The notes beneath the pieces were generated by a model that saw nothing but the letters and a program-made list of their open reading frames with translations, made no database searches and was not told the DNA's origin. From Acidobacteriota bacterium (GTDB lineage Bacteria; Acidobacteriota; Thermoanaerobaculia; Gp7-AA8), in NCBI GenBank assembly GCA_034665665.1, contig JAXDJK010000597.1:1-24452 (forward strand): a stretch of 24,452 bases of DNA. Direction: 5' to 3'. The position numbers were made by a program, and so were the translations under genes. The stretch's first letter is position 1, and each line of letters begins with the position of its first letter. Of the stretch, positions 1,938 through 18,687 are shown piece by piece.

Positions 1938-3638
1938 TCACGACGCGATGCGATAGGGAAGCGCCATCGCCAGCGCGAATCCGTCTCGTCGCGCGGAGAT
2001 GTCGAGAGAAAACGCATCGCCGTACATCTGCTCCAAGCGCGCTCGCGTATTCGAGAGCCCCAGCCCTTCGCGCGCGGGCAGCTCGCTGCCATTTCCACGT
2101 CCGTCGTCCTCCACGGCGATGTGCAATCGGTCCTGTCGGACCGTCGCCTGCACGGACACGCACCCGCCGGTCTCGGGGAGGAGGCCGTGGCGCAGGGCGT
2201 TCTCCACGAGCGGCTGCAGCAGGAAGCTGGGCACGAGCGCGCCTCGTGCGTCGTCGCTCGCCTCGACGACCAGTTCCGCGCGTCCTGCGAAGCGGATGTT
2301 CTCGATGGCGACGTAAGCGGCGAGCGAGTCGAGCTCCTCACGGAGCGGCACTTCCTCCCGGTCCGAGCGCTCGAGCACGCGCACGACGAAGTGCCGCAGC
2401 TCCGCGACCATACGCTGCGCGGTCGAGGCGTCGTCCTCGAGCAGCGCGGCGACGGAGTTCAACGAGTTGAAGAGGAAATGAGGGTTCAGCTGCAATCGAA
2501 GAAGGGTCGCGTGCGTACGAAGCATCGACGTTTCCAGCTCCGCGACCTTCGCGGCGGCGGCTGCGGCCTCGCGGTAGCGCGAGTACGCCAGGGTAGCCAG
2601 CCCGACGCCGAGGAAGAAAACCGGATCTAACGGACCGAAGAGCGCACGGTCGGGGTCGCGGGGAGACCCGATGGCTCGCCACAGGCTCACCAGTGTTGCG
2701 CCCCACAGCCACGGAACGCCGGTTGCGACCAGGATGAGCGGCCACACCCGTTCCACGCGCCTGCCCAGCCATACCATGGCCAGCGTTACGGGAAAGAACT
2801 CTACTGCCAGCGAGGCAGCCCAAAGCACCGGGGCCCACGAAAGCGGTTGGTTTCTCCACACGGCAAACAGCGCCTGGAGGACGCTCCAGAGGAGCTCATA
2901 CGCGGGGAGGATGCTGAACAACAGCAGGAGCCGGAGCGGGAGCGACCATTGCCGCCCTGCTGGCGCAAGCTCTTCTTCCCATTCCGCTTCGTCCTGCGCA
3001 ACCTCGTCGATCGCTGCATGGACCGTGGCGACGTTCAGCGACTCACGAAGTGATGCGGCGAACTCCTCGATCATCAGTTCGGCGCGGTCGGTGTCGAGCG
3101 CGATGGTTCGTTCGATCTGCAGGAGCCGCTCGCTGACGACGTGGACCGGTAATTCGAGCCGCAGGCGATCCAGAGCCGCCTGCGCCAGCGACCGCTCCAG
3201 CGCGAGCCGTTCCTGTTCCCGCCGTGCTGACGCTCGCAGATAGAGAGACATCTGTGTGGCCACCACCGTCACGCCATAGACGAGGAAATCCATCAGCATG
3301 TGTGGCGGGATCCACCAGAGCAGAATCCTCCACAGCGATGGTCCCGGGGAAGGGGGGGCACCTCGAACGAGCACGAATGTGAGCGTGTAGATGGCCAGGT
3401 GAACGGCATGGAAGGCGAGAGCGGCGACCAGATGGACGCCGATGAATCGCCACGTCTGGCGGCGCCGGTACGGGACGGCGGTGGCCACGCGAACCACCAG
3501 CGGAGCGAGGACGATCCACTCCGCCCACCCGAACGCGAGCCAGGCCATGCCGGACGGCCAATCCAGACCGAATGCAAGTCGCACCAGTACCTCGAGCAGC
3601 AGCAGCGAGATGCCGGCGATGACTGCTACGTATCTCAC
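1938..3638 (-). CDS. LytS/YehU-family membrane sensor histidine kinase with a duplicated TM + DHp module
   Basis: H-box LRLQLNPHFLFNSLN, N-box LLQPLVENALRHG, G1 VEDDGRG and G2 GLGLSNTRARL. Two hydrophobic multi-TM blocks. GTG start at 3638 overlaps the LytTR TGA (GTGA coupling), so the longer 4409 ORF is an artefact. Confidence 0.92.
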   Translation of the reverse strand: MRYVAVIAGISLLLLEVLVRLAFGLDWPSGMAWLAFGWAEWIVLAPLVVRVATAVPYRRRQTWRFIGVHLVAALAFHAVHLAIYTLTFVLVRGAPPSPGPSLWRILLWWIPPHMLMDFLVYGVTVVATQMSLYLRASARREQERLALERSLAQAALDRLRLELPVHVVSERLLQIERTIALDTDRAELMIEEFAASLRESLNVATVHAAIDEVAQDEAEWEEELAPAGRQWSLPLRLLLLFSILPAYELLWSVLQALFAVWRNQPLSWAPVLWAASLAVEFFPVTLAMVWLGRRVERVWPLILVATGVPWLWGATLVSLWRAIGSPRDPDRALFGPLDPVFFLGVGLATLAYSRYREAAAAAAKVAELETSMLRTHATLLRLQLNPHFLFNSLNSVAALLEDDASTAQRMVAELRHFVVRVLERSDREEVPLREELDSLAAYVAIENIRFAGRAELVVEASDDARGALVPSFLLQPLVENALRHGLLPETGGCVSVQATVRQDRLHIAVEDDGRGNGSELPAREGLGLSNTRARLEQMYGDAFSLDISARRDGFALAMALPYRIAS

Positions 3639-12600: not shown

Positions 12601-13176
12601 AGTGTGCCTTTCGGCGTCGACGGCCACGCGTGCATCCTGACGGTGGTGGAGTCGCCGGAGGACCCGCTCGACCCGAAGATCCGGGCGCAGAACCTGGTCA
12701 AGCCGGAGGACTTTGTTCCGATCTCCCGCCACATCGCGCAGCGCAACTTGACAGTGAAGAGCTTCAAGCTCAAGTGGATCCCGATCCTCTTCCCGATCCA
12801 GATCATTAATCCGCCAGAGGAGCGGGGCTTCGAGCTGGTGCTGTCCAAGCCCGACCTGCGCGAGAACGTCCTGTTCGCGCTGCCGAAAGGGATGGCCGCG
12901 AAGGCCACGTTCGGTGCGGCGCGGCCGACGCGGATCGAAGATCCGGAGATGGCTCGCCAGGTCGAGGCCATGGGTCTCGATCCGAATAACGCCTGGGACT
13001 TCAGCGGCGATGAAGCAGGCCTGTTCGTGGAGATGCGTCCCGGCGAGCGCGCCACCATCGCCGTGATCGGCACCCCCGGCGCCGAAGGCACGTCGTCCCG
13101 TTTCTCCGTGGTCCAGCGCATCGGCCGCAAGGTCCTCGGCGGCAACGTGTATCTCTTCCGTCCCGAACCACAGTAA
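9625..13176 (+). CDS. Large secreted Asp-box/BNR beta-propeller protein (GH74/sialidase/Vps10-like fold) with a C-terminal beta-sandwich module
   Basis: RBS AAGGAGG and signal peptide. Motifs WVSAGPTNINGRVTSITVDP; Asp-box-like WRSLDAGRRW, FRSVNGGMDW, KTTDGVNW and YRTDDGGASW; HGDHHAFAFDP, AGNDGGI, GSQDNG and LYAGTFGHGMY. C-terminal RDNVYDDGDEP...VYVQVQNRG...GHACIL...AQRNL. Confidence 0.88.
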   Translation: MHRRVRGVLSVGLMLVCSFVGAQEKRGDGSVYDKYPLVKPIAGEETEDFERTAELYKEMFSEEGGKLRVQAYGELTAMRRARGLRHRSAGSGFDFARRMKPDAPNETGPNGCAWVSAGPTNINGRVTSITVDPTDGNKIYATTVGGIWRSLDAGRRWQRVSDEFLSTVFSSVAVNPSTPSEVLAGGGDSSYQNSYRGGIGIWRSNSFGAPGTWTKVSTPDFDNKVIYRIRIDPAAPNDIYVASTHGVWLGVHNGGNITFSQIGSFNADTSDLVVDFSAMPRKVYAGVRGGSVNFAKGIWKWNGSAWAKKDGGIPTNTIQLVALALAKSSPATLYARMVASDGQQQGIYKTTVAGEGANAWSLLSNASIVNDSGSAAFWYSWYNNVIEVDPTDASRVYAAGLNTFRSVNGGMDWAQISAGADPDYPYWTHGDHHAFAFDPVNPKIVYAGNDGGIDKSTDISKPVWHWRDSSHGMVMTEFYYTTSSHEHPTLLADGSQDNGTDITFGNRTWYNPGGCDGFNVGSDAKNPDTLYANCNHGVYEIANPVPGTIGGQAQIAWVSPVPVREPAITDRLYAGGALAGGGDLCGKHTVLKTTDGVNWAATNTNFPLGGKVRVLASASVATFKTYMAAVAYNPPTQVDCPGFQSAFFTPTVYRTDDGGASWTANATGLPGSIPASIVFDPADKFRVYISYGSSGLYMTTNGTNYYPIAGSGPTGLPPSAQVREVAVDPADANVIYAATGVGVFRGVITPGAPPSAVWTPFDEGMPDGTMINGVWTDPKTGSLYAGTFGHGMYRRDIRPEAACKARMLVVRDNVYDDGDEPSPFGIPDAEHPIPDPVRPQFYKPDDTAGGRTYWWTSGDIRVDVPSAAPLKNAIASADHLEFEVCPTAIADCPAGTMVDSAPQSGKIARVYVQVQNRGVETVANTRVLAVWAPLSAGLPPLPPSFWSTTFPANGPCGALDPSTGWQLVDPVNPCRNIAAINPEIPELARFDWSVPFGVDGHACILTVVESPEDPLDPKIRAQNLVKPEDFVPISRHIAQRNLTVKSFKLKWIPILFPIQIINPPEERGFELVLSKPDLRENVLFALPKGMAAKATFGAARPTRIEDPEMARQVEAMGLDPNNAWDFSGDEAGLFVEMRPGERATIAVIGTPGAEGTSSRFSVVQRIGRKVLGGNVYLFRPEPQ

Positions 13177-13260
13177 TGTGTTGGTTTGGAGGCCCTTCTG
13201 TGACTTCTGCCGTCCGGAGCGGAACTACATTCCTCGCATTGAATTAAGGAGGAGCCCGCC

Positions 13261-13485
13261 ATGTCATTGCGTTACACGGAGCTCGGTGTTCATCTCTCCC
13301 GCGAAGCATGTGGTCCCGCAACGAAAGATTTCTGCCCCACGGCCTCGGCCAGCATCCTCATCCACGCCTGCGGACAGGTGACGGCGTTCTGCCCGACCCT
13401 GTCGGCATCAGGCATGCCGCACAAGGCCACGGAAATCGACTTCGAGCCAGTCCGCGCGCAGCTGCGCGAGGCCCTCGGCCATTAA
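13261..13485 (+). CDS. 74-aa small protein with two Cys-containing internal repeats and an amphipathic C-terminal helix (RiPP-precursor-like or metal-binding)
   Basis: Strong RBS AAGGAGG at 13246-13252. Repeats ACGPATKDFCPTASAS and ACGQVTAFCPTLSAS. A perfect 12-bp hairpin lies immediately downstream of the stop. Confidence 0.75.
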   Translation: MSLRYTELGVHLSREACGPATKDFCPTASASILIHACGQVTAFCPTLSASGMPHKATEIDFEPVRAQLREALGH

Positions 13486-13496
13486 CCCGGATCCCC

Positions 13497-13524
13497 GCGG
13501 GCGCGTTCTCCGGAACGCGCCCGC
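13497..13524 (+). terminator. Perfect 12-bp GC-rich hairpin (putative terminator or mRNA-stabilising stem)
   Basis: GCGGGCGCGTTC-TCCG-GAACGCGCCCGC, 11 nt after the small ORF stop. Only a weak U-tract (ATTCT) follows. Confidence 0.55.
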
Positions 13525-13574
13525 ATTCTGAACGCGTTCGGCGTGCGTCACACCGGCAGCGCCTGTGGCTGTAC

Positions 13575-13613
13575 AAGAGCGGCGGGAAAGCGCCGCACTC
13601 CAAACGCTTCGCG
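13575..13613. repeat. REP-like imperfect palindromic element (AGCGGCG-GGAAAG-CGCCGCACTCCAAA)
   Basis: Stem GCGGCG (13579-13584) / CGCCGC (13591-13596) with a flanking ACTCCAAA tail. It resembles extragenic palindromes I recall from GC-rich soil bacteria (not verified). Single copy in the window. Confidence 0.45.
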
Positions 13614-13779
13614 TAGACTGCCGCGCTCGTTCGCACCAGGCTCGATGCTGCGGGCACGTTTGGCGCGACGCTCTGGCAGCACGGGTGTGTTCCAGGCGAG
13701 GCTCCGCAGCCCCGCGCTCCATGGCTGGCGTCCGCACGCGTCAGCGTGAGTCGAGTGCCCGAGCGACCCGCCGAAGCGT

Positions 13780-13964
13780 GATCCATGGATCTCGCCGGGA
13801 TGCATTCATCCCCAGAGGCTGACATCCATGGATGGCGACATTTGGAGTTTGGATGCACCAAGAGCCCATCCATGGATGCGATTCTGGATCGTTCCATCCC
13901 GACTCTGTGCCATCCATGGACGGCGCTTGCGCAGGTTCATCGCACATCGCGCCAGCCATGGATG
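13780..13964. repeat. Array of five 12-bp palindromes (consensus CATCCATGGATG) at a 42-44 bp period
   Basis: Units start at 13780 (GATCCATGGATC), 13823 (CATCCATGGATG), 13867 (CATCCATGGATG), 13911 (CATCCATGGACG) and 13953 (CAGCCATGGATG). Spacers are 31, 32, 32 and 30 nt. A degenerate sixth copy lies near 13718-13730. Confidence 0.85.
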
Positions 13965-14006
13965 TTGCCGGCGGCAGCGGCGCGCGCGGAGCGCACGACG
14001 GCGGCG

Positions 14007-14012
14007 TATCAT
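14007..14012 (+). promoter_or_regulatory. -10 element TATCAT, probable leaderless promoter
   Basis: TAnnnT hexamer 7 nt upstream of ATG 14020. No Shine-Dalgarno sequence. Confidence 0.4.
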
Positions 14013-14019
14013 CTGCGGC

Positions 14020-14760
14020 ATGGCCGATCTCGCCACGTTCAGCCTCGCGGATGTCGTTCGGTGCAGCTCGGAGCTGCGGGTATCGTCCGCTGGTGCCGCG
14101 TCCATGGAGGAGGCGGCGGTGCGGGTGGTCGGGCGGCTCTATGACACGCTCCTCGACGCCGCGACGGGCGAACGGGCCGTTGCGCTGATCCGGCTGTTCA
14201 AAACGCATCCGTACGGCGCGCTCGAGCCGGAGCAGCGCGTGTTCGCGGACCGGCTGCTCGGCGACCACCAGCCGGCGCCGTCGATGCGCTGCCTGACCCT
14301 GCTGGCTACACGCGGACAGGAACCGGAGTGGAACGACCGGCACGGCTCGCGCGGCCACGCGGCCATTCCGCTGCCGAGCGAGAAGATCGTCCAGAACGCG
14401 CCGATGATCTCGCAGCTCATCGCGCAGCTCGGCGTCGACATCTCGGCGCTGCTCCGTCCGGAGCCGAACGTCATCGTCGATCTGGCCCAGAAGAGCTACA
14501 ACGTCTTCCACGTGCCGGAGGCGAAGGGGAGTCCGTACATCCCCGCGCAGGATGACTTCGTGATTCCGTTCGGCATCCGTTCGGTCCTCGGGTTCGGCGG
14601 GATGCTCCCCTCGGGGAACCTGTTCGCCACGATCCTGTTCACGAAGACCGCGGTGCCGCGGGAGACGGCCGACCTCTTCGCGAACGTTGCATTGGCGGTC
14701 AAGCTGGCCATCCTGCCGTTCGACGGCGGTGCCACCTTTGCAGACACAGCCAAGGCGTGA
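14020..14760 (+). CDS. Conserved uncharacterised stand-alone sensor-like (probably GAF-related) protein
   Basis: Motifs [60 protein letters not shown] and [18 protein letters not shown] resemble a domain I recall fused to or upstream of histidine kinases. Translationally coupled (GTGA) to the downstream kinase. Confidence 0.8.
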
Positions 14761-16628
14761 GCGTCAACGAACTGACCGCGGTCAACGAGACCGACCTGCT
14801 CCGTGCCGAAGCGGCGACGCTGCAGCAGCTCATGGGCGTGCTGGAGCGGACCACCCTCGAGCAGACGCGAAAGCTCGAAGAGGCGATCCGCGACCGCACC
14901 GCCGCGGCCGAGGAACTGCGGCGACAGCTCGAAACCACGCGCGCGCTCACCGAGAGCATGGGCGAGGGCGTGCTCGCCTTCGGCGCCGATGCGCGGCTCT
15001 CGTTCGTCAACAGCGCGGCGCGGGAGATGCTCGGCGTCGACGAGCCGAGCGTCCAGGGAAAGCTGCTGCACGAGATTGGGCTGACCCGCCGTCCTGAGAC
15101 CATCGCCGCGATCTGGCGGGTCTTCGACGCCCGGACGACGGTGCGGAGCGACGACGACCTGTTTCTCACCGCCAGGGGCCAACAGCTTGCCGTGTCGTAC
15201 ACGGCCTCACCGATCATTGCGGGCGGCGAGTTCCTCGGCGCGGTGGTGGTCTTTCACGACATTTCGGCGCGCAAACGGGCGGACGAAGAGCGGCAGAAGC
15301 TGCTCGAGATCGAGCGCGAGGCCCGGGTTCAGGCGGAGCGCGCCCGGGAGACCAGCCGCTTTCTGGCCGAGGCCGGGTCGGTGCTCGTGTCGTCTCTCGA
15401 TTCGGCGGCGACGCTCGAGCGGGTGGCACGGCTCGCGGTCCCCTCGTTCGCCGACTGGAGCTTCGTCCATCTCCTCGACGCCACCGGAACCCTCCGCCGC
15501 GTCACCGCCGTGCATTCCGACCCGGCCCGGGAGGCGCTTCTGAACGCGGTGGAAGAGAGCTATCCGCCGTCGAACGACGATCCGTATGGGCCGAGCAAGG
15601 TGACGCGCACGGGCGTGAGCGAGATCGTCCCCGTCGTCGGAGAGGAAGTCCTCGAAGAGTCGGCCAAGGATGCGGCGCATCTCAATCAGTTGCGGACGTT
15701 CGGCTTCACGTCGTACGTCTCCGTTCCGCTCGTGGCGCGTACGCGGGCGCTGGGAGCGATGACCTTCGCCATGGCCGAGTCGGGCCGTCACTTCGGTGAA
15801 AGCGAGCTCCTGCTGGCGCAGCAACTGGTGGACCGCGCCGCACTGGCCATCGACAACGCCCGCCTGTTCACGGAGGTCGAGGAGGCGCGGCGCGATCTCG
15901 AGCAACGCGTGCTGGCCCGAACGGCGCAGCTCGAAGAAGCGAATCGCGAGCTGGAGTCGTTCTCCTACTCGGTCTCCCACGACCTGCGCGCGCCGATCCG
16001 TCACATCAGCGGCTTCGTGGACCTGTTCCGCAAGCGAGGCGGCGACGCGCTCGACGCCACCTCCGAGCACTACCTGCAGGTGATCGCCGGTGCGGCCAAA
16101 CAGGCCGGCACACTCGTCGACGACCTGCTGGCGTTCTCGCGCATGGGGCGGGCCGAGCTGGCCACGCAGCGCGTGTCGATGGATGCGATGGTGAAGGAGG
16201 TGCTGGGCCTGCTTCAGCCCGAGACCGGCTCCCGCTCCATCGAGTGGCGGATCGGTCCGCTCGGAGAAGTGACCGGAGACGCGGCGATGTTGCGGCTCGT
16301 CTGGCGGAACCTGCTGTCGAACGCCATCAAGTACACGCGGACGCGCGAGGCTGCCGTCATCGAGGTCGAGAGGACCGAGCTGGAGCGCGAGCACGTGTTT
16401 TGCGTAAGGGATAACGGCGTCGGGTTCGATATGAAATACGTCGGCAAGTTGTTCGGGGTGTTCCAGCGCCTGCACTCCGCCGACGAGTTCGAGGGCACGG
16501 GCATCGGCCTGGCCAACGTGCGCCGTATCGTCGGCCGCCATCGCGGCCGAGCCTGGGCGGAAGGGGAGATCGACCGTGGATCGACATTTTGCTTCGCGCT
16601 GCCGCGCGAACCGGAGGAGACGAATTGA
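14757..16628 (+). CDS. Cytoplasmic PAS-GAF sensor histidine kinase, phytochrome (Cph1)-type transmitter
   Basis: PAS ([22 protein letters not shown] ... [12 protein letters not shown]), GAF ([14 protein letters not shown] ... LAIDNARLF), H-box [42 protein letters not shown] and GTGIGLA. Confidence 0.95.
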
Positions 16629-17089
16629 GTGAGCTCAAACGAATTCTGCTCGTGGACGACAGCCCGCACGACGTGGAGTTGACCCTGGCGGCGCTCGAGC
16701 AGAATCGGCTGGCCAACGAAGTGGTCGTCGCGCGCGACGGCGAGGAGGCGCTCGACTATCTGTATCGCCGCGGAATCTTCAAGCTCCGCTCCGCCGGCCA
16801 TCCCGCGGTCGTGCTCCTCGATCTGAAGCTGCCGAAGGTCGACGGCCTGGAGGTCCTCAATCAGATCAAGAGCGACAACGACCTCCGTGCCGTACCGGTG
16901 GTGATGCTGACTTCCTCACGCGAAGAGAAGGATCTGGTGCAGAGCTACAACCTCGGCGTGAACGCGTATGTGGTCAAGCCGGTGGACTTTCACGAGTTCG
17001 TCGATTCCCTCAAGGAGCTGGGCCTGTTCTGGGCGGTGATCAATCAGCCGCCTCCGGGCAGCGTGAAACGGCCGGACGACCGGCGATGA
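16625..17089 (+). CDS. Single-domain response regulator (Rcp1-type)
   Basis: [38 protein letters not shown] and [13 protein letters not shown] start at 16625 with RBS GGAGGAG, overlapping the kinase stop. Confidence 0.93.
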
Positions 17090-18687
17090 ATTCCGGTGAC
17101 ACGGCCGAGGACTCGGAGCAGCTTCCGCACGATCTGGCGGTCCTGCTGCTCGAAGACAGTGTGCTCGATGCGGAGTTGACCTGCGCGAGCCTCGGCCTGG
17201 AAGGCAGCTGCCGGATCGAGCGGGTCGAGGACCAGCGTTCGTTCGAGAGCGCCCTCGCCGAGCGGCATTTCGATCTCATCCTCGCGGATTACTCGCTGCC
17301 GTCTTTCGACGGCATCTCGGCACTCGACCTCGCGCAGCAGTCGCATCCGGAGACGCCGTTCATTTTCGTCTCCGGCGCCCTCGGCGAGGAGCTGGCCATC
17401 GAGACGCTCAAGCGCGGCGCGACGGATTACGTCCTCAAGCATCGCCTCGAGCGCCTCCGCCCGTCCGTGCTGCGCGCGCTGCGCGAGAAGGAGGAGCGCC
17501 GCCAGCGGCAACTCGCGGAAGAGAAGCTCCGGAAGATGGCCGAAGACAATGCCCGCCTGTACGCGCAGGCGCGCCGCGCCAGCCTGGCCAAAGACGAGTT
17601 CATCGCCATGATCTCGCACGAACTGCGGACGCCGATGACGTCGATCCTCGGCTGGACGCGGCTTCTGAAAATGGGCGGTCTGTCGCAGGAGGAGAGTGTC
17701 ACGGCGATGGAGGCCGTCGAGCGAAGTGCCACCGTGCAGGCGCGCCTGATCGATGACCTGCTCGACATCTCCCGCATCAGCACCGGAAAGCTCGAGCTGA
17801 GTCTGGAGGACGTCGACCTGGCCAATGTCGTCACGACGACGGTGGAGGCGCTGCGGATCCCCGCCCGGGAGAAGCAGATCACGCTGCAGACGCAGATCGC
17901 CGCCGAAGGCTGCCTGGTACGCGGGGACCGCAACCGCCTGCAGCAGGTCGTCTCGAATCTCGTGCAGAACGCCGTGAAGTTCACGCCCGAGGGGGGATGG
18001 GTGAGCGTCGAGCTGGCCGGCAACAATGGGCGCGCCGAGCTGCGGGTGCGCGACAACGGCAAAGGGATTCGCCCCGAGGCGCTCGACCAGATCTTCGAGG
18101 CCTTCCGGCAGGAGCAGGGCTCGATGGAAGGCAAAGGCGGCCTCGGGCTCGGCCTGTCGATCGTCCGCCATATCGTGGAGCGGCACGGAGGATCCGTCAG
18201 CGCGGAAAGCGAGGGGCTCGACCGCGGTGCGACGTTCTGCGTCGCGCTGCCGTTGCTCGACGCGGCGGAGACGACCGGGAACCGCAGACCGTCTGCGGTC
18301 GATCAAATGCCGGACCTGCGCAACCGCACGATTCTCGTGGTCGAAGACGACACCGAAGCGCGGAATCTCATCGCCGCGATCCTGCAGCGCTGCGGCGCCG
18401 ACGTGCGCACCGCCGACTCCGTCTCCGGCGCCGTGGCCGTGCTTCCCCGCGCCACGTGGGACGCGATCGTGTCGGACATCAGCATGCCCGGGGCCGACGG
18501 CTACTCGCTGATGGCGCACGTGCAGGAGCTCTATCCGAACGGAACGGCGCCTCTGGTCGTGGCGGTCACGGCGTTCGGCGCCCCCGATGACCGCCGACGG
18601 ATCCGCGACGCCGGTTTCGTGCGCCACTTCGTCAAGCCGATCGATCCGCTCCTGTTCGCGCGCAGCATGGCCGCGATGTGGCAGTAG
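17086..18687 (+). CDS. Hybrid histidine kinase: REC-HisKA-HATPase-REC
   Basis: N-terminal REC (LILADYSLPSFDG, GATDYVLK), H-box [32 protein letters not shown] and C-terminal REC (VSDISMPGADG, FVKP). ATGA overlap with the upstream gene. Confidence 0.95.
   Translation: MNSGDTAEDSEQLPHDLAVLLLEDSVLDAELTCASLGLEGSCRIERVEDQRSFESALAERHFDLILADYSLPSFDGISALDLAQQSHPETPFIFVSGALGEELAIETLKRGATDYVLKHRLERLRPSVLRALREKEERRQRQLAEEKLRKMAEDNARLYAQARRASLAKDEFIAMISHELRTPMTSILGWTRLLKMGGLSQEESVTAMEAVERSATVQARLIDDLLDISRISTGKLELSLEDVDLANVVTTTVEALRIPAREKQITLQTQIAAEGCLVRGDRNRLQQVVSNLVQNAVKFTPEGGWVSVELAGNNGRAELRVRDNGKGIRPEALDQIFEAFRQEQGSMEGKGGLGLGLSIVRHIVERHGGSVSAESEGLDRGATFCVALPLLDAAETTGNRRPSAVDQMPDLRNRTILVVEDDTEARNLIAAILQRCGADVRTADSVSGAVAVLPRATWDAIVSDISMPGADGYSLMAHVQELYPNGTAPLVVAVTAFGAPDDRRRIRDAGFVRHFVKPIDPLLFARSMAAMWQ

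Follow-up and report, generated by a model that had tools for sequence, protein, structure and literature searches.

The question raised by the locus

Directly 5′ of a signalling operon in an uncultured soil member of the Acidobacteriota (Thermoanaerobaculia; Gp7-AA8), short palindromes recur at nearly constant intervals, with a repeat and spacer geometry that recalls a CRISPR array. What such a row is for, and which molecule recognizes it, is the question addressed here. The window, by which we mean the whole stretch of DNA that was analysed, is 24,452 nucleotides long and makes up an entire contig (24.5 kb) of a metagenome-assembled genome (G000) that is 58% complete and has 66% GC. A preliminary description of the locus, made from the letters of the window, had offered three options: (a) a phased operator or nucleoid-organizing array, with about four helical turns per unit, for a dimeric DNA-binding protein, (b) a structured or processed non-coding RNA, and (c) a degenerate cluster of the BIME/REPIN type.

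Geometry and conservation of the array

The unit coordinates bear out the geometry that had been described. Five 12-bp palindromes of the CATCCATGGATG type follow each other at periods of 43, 44, 44 and 42 bp, separated by spacers of 31, 32, 32 and 30 nt, and a degenerate sixth copy (TCCATGGC at 13718) lies 64 bp upstream. The hairpin in spacer 1 and the ten occurrences of GGATG/CATCC in 13780 to 13964 (5 + 5) are likewise present, and weaker GGATG/CATCC copies fall in spacers 2 and 3 (13851 and 13895). The sites are listed below, with centres counted from the A of the ATG at 14020.

13718..13725, no strand: outlying degenerate site TCCATGGC, 64 bp 5′ of unit 1, equal to three steps of a ~21.3-bp lattice; centre −298.5
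13780..13791, no strand: unit 1, GATCCATGGATC; centre −234.5
13797..13812, no strand: everted half-site pair GGGATG-CATT-CATCCC in the middle of spacer 1, near a half-lattice position; putatively functional
13823..13834, no strand: unit 2, CATCCATGGATG; centre −191.5
13867..13878, no strand: unit 3, CATCCATGGATG; centre −147.5
13911..13922, no strand: unit 4, CATCCATGGACG; centre −103.5
13953..13964, no strand: unit 5, CAGCCATGGATG, with the core GCCATGGA; centre −61.5

The six units can be aligned end to end, giving as the unit consensus a 20-bp palindrome, GCGCCATCCATGGATGGCGC. Core positions are retained at 46 of 48 over the six units, and the mid-spacers are near random. This combination points to purifying selection on the cores at the window locus, and continuing selection of this kind would imply a binder acting in trans. 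The spacers had been taken as mostly dissimilar, which is correct, but they are not unrelated, as their mean pairwise identity is 0.39 compared with 0.26 for shuffles (p ~4e-4). Together with the whole-length alignment of the units, this residual similarity suggests an old tandem duplication of a ~43-bp unit of which the core alone was retained. The arms in the window are mostly decayed compared with the longer palindromes found elsewhere; the right arm of unit 3, GCGATTC, has retained the nnnATTC arm of the array family, and the flank of unit 1 has a 20-nt match to units of an array in another genus.

The row is the single cluster of its kind in the assembled genome. In the 3.99 Mb of G000 there are 38 copies of TCCATGGA, CATCCATGGATG is found at the array alone, and the one chain of at least three CCATGG at 40–46 bp spacing is the array itself; the Poisson expectation for at least four cores in any 200-bp window is ~2e-8 genome-wide. 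A sixth exact TCCATGGA at 14101–14108 covers the codons S-M-E within the gene for a 246-aa protein; it lies 146 bp from unit 5, does not fall on the lattice and is probably a coincidence. Among the public contigs from four soil runs, the array is covered by the source sample only, and a literature search for the motif returned no relevant report.

Genomic setting of the array

The array sits in an 844-bp gap between 13176 and 14020 and is non-coding, as had been proposed. The downstream gene, which starts with the ATG at 14020, is the first of a signalling operon.

Ends at 13176: gene for a 1184-aa BNR/sortilin-like protein, the upstream border of the gap
14007..14012, plus strand: −10-like hexamer TATCAT, 7 nt 5′ of the ATG at 14020
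14020..14760, plus strand: first operon gene, 246 aa, without a Pfam or NCBIfam family
14757–16628, plus strand: PAS-GAF histidine kinase (assigned by Pfam); the remaining operon spans 14757..18687
16589–17089, plus strand: response regulator of the operon
17086–18687, plus strand: hybrid kinase of the operon

The position of TATCAT, 7 nt before the ATG, would imply a leaderless transcript, and the operon would then have its transcription start at 14020; scanning for sigma-70 promoters and for terminators gave no match. Homologues of the 246-aa protein were found at 64 metagenome loci (44–90% identity) and at five in the genomes of the family, and the protein may be an uncharacterized sensory or accessory module of the operon kinases.

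Three other elements share the gap. A 74-aa ORF at 13261–13485 has high GC3 and no Pfam family, and a perfect GC-rich hairpin follows it at 13495–13526. At 13550–13618 lies a GC-rich palindromic element of ~66 bp with GTAG, which has 309 BLAST matches in G000, often as inverted pairs in the manner of REPINs, and whose summed depth is >4000x in the source soil metagenome and ~280–420x in another soil run. This element is the real REP-type repeat of the genome and is unrelated to the TCCATGGA array.

The locus was compared with orthologous loci. The closest operon orthologue, a metagenome locus (L159) with 90% amino acid and 81% nucleotide identity, aligns with the window from 14016, which is 4 bp 5′ of the ATG, to 17755; further upstream the sequence is unrelated, the neighbouring gene is another one, and there is no array. 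This orthologue, too, has a −10-like hexamer of the TAYCAT/TATCCT type 6–7 nt before its ATG. The array is also missing upstream of the five family homologues of the 246-aa gene (46–58% amino acid identity) and of the 63 further metagenome homologues, and a genome of the same genus (G001) is without orthologues of the genes that flank the array. The absence of the array from an orthologue 90% identical indicates that the operon as such does not depend on it and that it is not the ancestral operator. Judging from the breakpoint in the alignment, the entire regulatory region was probably exchanged at the start codon of the operon.

Arrays in related genomes

Arrays of the same kind occur in relatives of the source organism. 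When one genome per species was scanned for three TCCATGGA cores 39–49 bp apart, many of the matches were coding tandem repeats, and a distinct set of non-coding arrays came up in Thermoanaerobaculia/Acidobacteriota MAGs, with periods of 42–44 bp and spacers ranging from near-identical to diverged. Adjacent TCCATGGA pairs at 41–45 bp were then found in 8 of 35 and, in the larger set, in 24 of 124 genomes of the window's family, compared with 0 of 115 genomes from other families of the class, and controls with the reversed pattern gave 0–1. The complete (100%) genome G001 of the same genus has arrays at at least four loci and another relative (G161) at at least five; the related complete genomes have 1–26 unit pairs each, one of them being a 6.6-Mb genome in a single contig. 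The related genomes and loci are not all independent, as several loci are orthologous, and gene calls at these loci rest on a crude GC3 heuristic with Pfam spot checks.

Every array examined is intergenic. Many units elsewhere form longer palindromes of the type GAAnnnnn-TCCATGGA-nnnnnTTC, and the complementarity of the arms is specific to the unit, as shown when own arms are compared with those of other units (z = 6.7). Unit subtypes are common to different loci within one genome, and some related arrays have spacers that are 83–97% identical. At three loci (the −203.5 site of L263, L275 and L271) the central AT is changed to CG in some units (ATCCCGGGAT), a double change that leaves the palindrome perfect; core centres that are not self-complementary occur at background level.

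Regular TCCATGGA arrays were also found in other phyla. Those in Segatella, Tannerella, Polyangiaceae, Lysobacterales and Coriobacteriaceae have no homologous HTH gene adjoining them, and we treat them as look-alikes picked by the search pattern and not as the same system. Several arrays found elsewhere have features of their own. Segatella maculosa (L014, L019 and L102) and Tannerella MAGs (L034 and L045) have palindromes of the CGTCTTCCATGGAAGACG type with a 41–42-bp period and flanks of A- and T-runs at several loci per genome. In a Polyangiaceae MAG (L099), a TCCATGGA array with a 42-bp period and units ~85–90% identical (1970–2230) lies directly 5′ of an ORF for a Cas4-family PD-(D/E)XK nuclease (2435–3097). 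An 8.8-kb contig labelled Denitrobaculum (L103, 43% GC) consists almost wholly of a 43/44-bp satellite in which ~95 TCCATGGA cores are spaced by multiples of 43 bp; its composition is odd for the labelled organism and may point to a contaminant or a satellite.

Small Xre-type proteins next to the arrays

One array locus is kept across three genera, and the gene adjoining it encodes an 89-aa Xre-type HTH protein (HTH_31/HTH_3 in Pfam). We searched for this protein in the 124 family genomes and matched the coordinates of its homologues to those of the arrays. Among ~32 distinct arrays, defined by the DNA pattern alone, an Xre HTH homologue lies within 4–265 bp at 18, which are reduced to about a dozen once orthologues are collapsed. 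The HTH gene (~85–100 aa) reads away from the array in 18 of 18 cases, one of which (G001:C50) belongs to the window's genus. All 24 array-bearing genomes contain an HTH homologue, compared with 76 of the 124 genomes overall.

The association also holds when it is approached from the protein. Nearly all of 30 HTH loci picked by protein alone have [TG]CC(AT|CG|GC)GG[AC] motifs within 450 bp upstream, and the centres of TCCNNGGA there are AT in 43 cases, CG in 7, and each other type in at most 3. The form of the core follows the HTH subclade. A subclade with the recognition helix MNPTYLGF has five to eight copies of GCCATGGA and no TCCATGGA, the core in the NATW clade is ATCCATGGAT, and that in the NPTH/NQTH clade is GCCCGGGC or TCCGCGGA. 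The comparison of cores and subclades includes one locus (L286) from an unpublished genome (G215), and no claim depends on that row alone. This co-variation suggests, indirectly, that the HTH proteins may bind the array cores in a sequence-specific manner.

Each HTH gene forms a monocistronic unit, in most cases with a convergent gene behind it, and no restriction or methylase genes come after the HTH genes. The proteins have in common the motifs MPRxR, which is a conserved N-terminal arm, DAVRFG and MN(A/P)xYLG. The family is unnamed: it has weak NCBIfam matches to antitoxins and to the RstR type, and it falls into a generic Atlas cluster that is commonest in Acidobacteriota. The nearest solved structures by sequence are those of C.AhdI and C.BclI, with a weak match (E ~1e-4), and no relatives were found in viral contigs. 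Beside one HTH-linked array (G225:C63) ends an ORF for a SymE-toxin-like protein of the AbrB fold (L253:2387-2725), which was not seen at other loci.

A helical lattice and its possible register with the promoter

The distances between neighbouring cores are restricted to few values. Among 176 such distances from all family loci, 117 are at 41–44 bp, 5 at 21–22, 12 at 63–64, 25 at 83–87 and 13 at 125–128. They are multiples of ~21.3 bp, or two helical turns, so that a single face of the DNA would present all the sites. The 63–64-bp class in the related arrays matches the 64-bp step from unit 1 to TCCATGGC in the window. Because the half-steps cannot be produced by copying a 43-bp unit alone, they argue for a constraint imposed by protein binding on the face of the helix.

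The lattice may also be in register with the promoter. The HTH genes have a −10-like hexamer, TAYCAT or TATCCT, 6–7 nt before the ATG, a position that suggests leaderless mRNAs. Common positions of the sites at the HTH loci are −18.5, ~−61.5, ~−147, ~−190 and ~−234 from the ATG. The window sites from −61.5 to −234.5 fall on the same lattice, a fit that has a ~14% chance of being accidental, and the −18.5 site, which lies within the promoter, is absent from the window. Beyond units of 16–21 nt, the upstream region in the window has no promoter-level homology to the upstream regions of the HTH genes.

The window array as an orphan

In relatives the sites lie directly before the regulator's own gene, which is not the case in the window. 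No HTH homologue or relic was found on the contig by tblastn (E ≤ 10) or by Pfam on the minus-strand ORFs, and the window array is for this reason regarded as an orphan, or a target in trans, rather than an autoregulatory site. The best HTH match in the assembled 58% of G000 (C278) is N-terminally truncated and without an array; it lies at G000:C278:3859-4014, has 62% identity over 50 aa, and may be a decayed module. Other Xre proteins in G000 are distant and also without arrays.

About a dozen other orphan arrays are known from the relatives. Most of them lie just 5′ of a gene reading away from the array, and among the products of these genes are an SDR, a DUF4350 protein, a PilB-type ATPase and an MFS transporter. 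At least two (L011 and L130) are flanked by convergent genes, a setting in which a promoter would not be expected.

Alternative explanations

It could be argued that the arrays are palindromic minisatellites similar to REP, BIME or MIRU elements, selfish or structural, in which case the HTH link would reflect a shared mobile or duplicating module and the window copy would be a decaying relic. The multiple loci in G001 and G161, the unit subtypes common between loci, the range from near-identical to diverged arrays, the arm complementarity within units and the two arrays between convergent genes all agree with this explanation, and the gap in the window is a site that accepts repeats, as it contains a true REP-like element of high copy number as well. 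However, one locus in G000 and the 1–26 unit pairs in the related genomes are far below the copy numbers of REP elements, and a search around the 15 Y1_Tnp loci of G000, G001 and G161 (flanks of ~1.5 kb where the contigs allowed) found no TCCATGGA beside any Y1/RAYT gene. The presence of Y1_Tnp does not discriminate either, as it is found in 57 of 61 family genomes, with or without arrays. In addition, it is the centre of the palindrome that is conserved and not a stem-base GTAG, the cores are kept in randomized spacers on a lattice that holds half-steps as well, the orientation of the HTH gene is invariable, and the core variants track the HTH subclades. We consider the minisatellite explanation unlikely. 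With respect to option (c), the dispersal at a few loci per genome agrees with a BIME/REPIN-like cluster, but there is no link to RAYT, and the real REP element of the genome is a different one.

A role as a centromere-like or nucleoid-organizing platform, serving segregation, domain organization or insulation in the manner of sopC and not promoter control, has in its favour that sopC of the F plasmid (PMC3177203) likewise has a 43-bp period and a single inverted repeat in each unit, that the sites lie on one helical face, and that some arrays are outside promoter regions. We give it little credence, considering that no ParA/ParB-type genes adjoin any array examined, that the arrays are chromosomal (including those in the 6.6-Mb single-contig genome) and occur several per genome at unrelated places, and that the tight, oriented link to a small Xre gene and the promoter-proximal −18.5 sites are typical of autoregulation. 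A structured or processed non-coding RNA whose units pair with each other would account for the fold of the region, which on both strands is more stable than that of shuffles (z = −4.3 and −4.6), with nested pairing of units. The excess stability is strand-symmetric, though, as expected of any row of palindromes; quantization by helical phase has no meaning for RNA, the array is probably 5′ of the transcription start, and the absence of promoter and terminator matches noted above counts against it as well. An Rfam scan of 13000–14300 (E ≤ 10) gave a best E value of 0.4, with unrelated miRNA models at 12–24 bits against thresholds of 40–100. Option (b) therefore found no specific support, and an RNA function seems very improbable. 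The same has to be said even more firmly of a CRISPR-like or otherwise spacer-acquiring array, which we practically dismiss. The regular geometry and the mostly dissimilar spacers invite the comparison, but the spacing is quantized by helical turns and related arrays have near-identical spacers. The conserved core is 8–12 bp, compared with near-identical repeats of ~23–55 bp in CRISPR, and is flanked by palindrome arms that have degenerated; the spacers are diverged copies of the unit, homologous to each other, and not unrelated foreign DNA. When all large ORFs of the 24-kb contig were scanned with Pfam, none had a Cas domain, in agreement with the earlier statement that cas genes are absent, whereas the CRISPR-like character proposed from the geometry was not upheld.

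Comparison with known systems

In their presumed function, the arrays with their HTH genes are closest to the C proteins and C-boxes (C.PvuII, C.AhdI and C.BclI), where a small Xre regulator has palindromes directly 5′ of its own gene. The C-protein circuits consist of small Xre autoregulators with palindromic operators and leaderless mRNA, and the operator variants track recognition-helix subgroups (PMC2175313). However, C-boxes have two sites 15 bp apart on opposite faces, whereas the arrays have 2–10 sites on a 21.3/42.6-bp lattice with all sites on the same face. Here there are also no restriction-modification genes, many paralogues occur per genome, and orphan arrays are found at other genes.

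In geometry, the closest system is sopC of the F plasmid, which has tandem 43-bp units with one inverted repeat each and a dimeric HTH protein. It comprises 12 units of 43 bp, and SopB binds the 16-bp inverted repeat that each of them contains, which gives rise to a nucleoprotein complex over many sites (PMC3177203). In sopC, which is plasmid-borne and found downstream of sopAB, the units are near-identical from end to end, whereas here the spacers are diverged, the arrays are chromosomal and without a ParA/ParB partner, and the sites appear to be in register with a promoter. The arrays belong neither to the C-box nor to the sopC systems.

Two further groups have features in common with the arrays. 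Repressors of the Xre/CI class, such as RstR of CTXphi with its ig-2 operators and CI of coliphage 186, are small proteins of the Cro/CI type that bind several spaced operators cooperatively 5′ of their own gene. Compared with these, the arrays are longer and differ in lattice and core, no phage context was found, with no relatives among viral contigs, and the NCBIfam match to RstR is weak. Like REP/BIME elements and MIRU minisatellites, the arrays are intergenic tandem palindromes at several loci that expand by duplication of units; they differ in low copy number, the lack of RAYT, conservation of the centre instead of the stem base, strict phasing and the oriented link to a regulator.

Proposed mechanism and implications

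Taken together, the array with its conserved cores, the family-wide link to the HTH genes, the helical lattice and the breakpoint at the start codon are established by the comparisons above. We suggest that the array is probably a phased multi-site operator for the Xre HTH family and that the operon acquired it through an exchange of its regulatory region. Option (a) is in this form the best supported of the three, owing to the candidate binder family, the small Xre HTH proteins that adjoin such arrays in relatives; the part that did not hold is that the array would be a conserved feature of the operon, as the orthologue with 90% identity is without it. Several observations have to be set against the operator reading. 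The contig has no HTH homologue and the best one in G000 is truncated, the closest operon orthologue is without an array, and at least two orphan arrays are flanked by convergent genes. In addition, a classical HTH dimer, whose half-sites are one turn apart, would need more than the 8-bp core, and the unit-specific complementarity of the arms would also fit an element that forms hairpins.

In relatives, rows of 2–10 sites lie directly 5′ of the regulator's own, apparently leaderless, gene, on a ~21.3-bp lattice of which mostly every second step is filled (42–44 bp), which places all of them on one side of the helix. According to the mechanism that we propose, dimers on adjacent sites would repress transcription when one site is at −18.5 inside the promoter, and dimers at −61.5 and further upstream would modulate it. 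The arrays would grow by tandem duplication of the ~43-bp unit followed by divergence outside the core. The row in the window probably arrived when the whole upstream region was replaced, and a regulator whose gene lies elsewhere in the incomplete genome would then have gained control of the operon in trans. Since the occluding −18.5 site is absent, the window array probably modulates transcription from upstream positions; the regulatory effect and its direction are deduced from the arrangement of the sites.

The finding also carries a caution for genome scanning, because diverged operator minisatellites can mimic CRISPR-like geometry. If the inference holds, the arrays would represent a regulatory architecture not described before, in a soil lineage that is uncultured and little studied, with long phase-locked rows of operators tied to multi-copy, tiny Xre regulators and with orphan rows that recruit operons. 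As a concrete DNA motif with a protein family, they would offer a natural system for relating the number of sites and their helical phasing to promoter output. More speculatively, and with considerable doubt on our part, the soil Thermoanaerobaculia might contain a network of at most 20 homologous loci per genome, in which leaderless mini-regulators polymerize on phase-locked, copy-variable rows (21.3-bp lattice, 2–10 or more sites) and cassettes of array plus promoter are transplanted before other operons, in the window with the exact start codon as the point of joining. If this were true, the network would be a modular, minisatellite-like way to rewire and tune transcription that has not been described previously.
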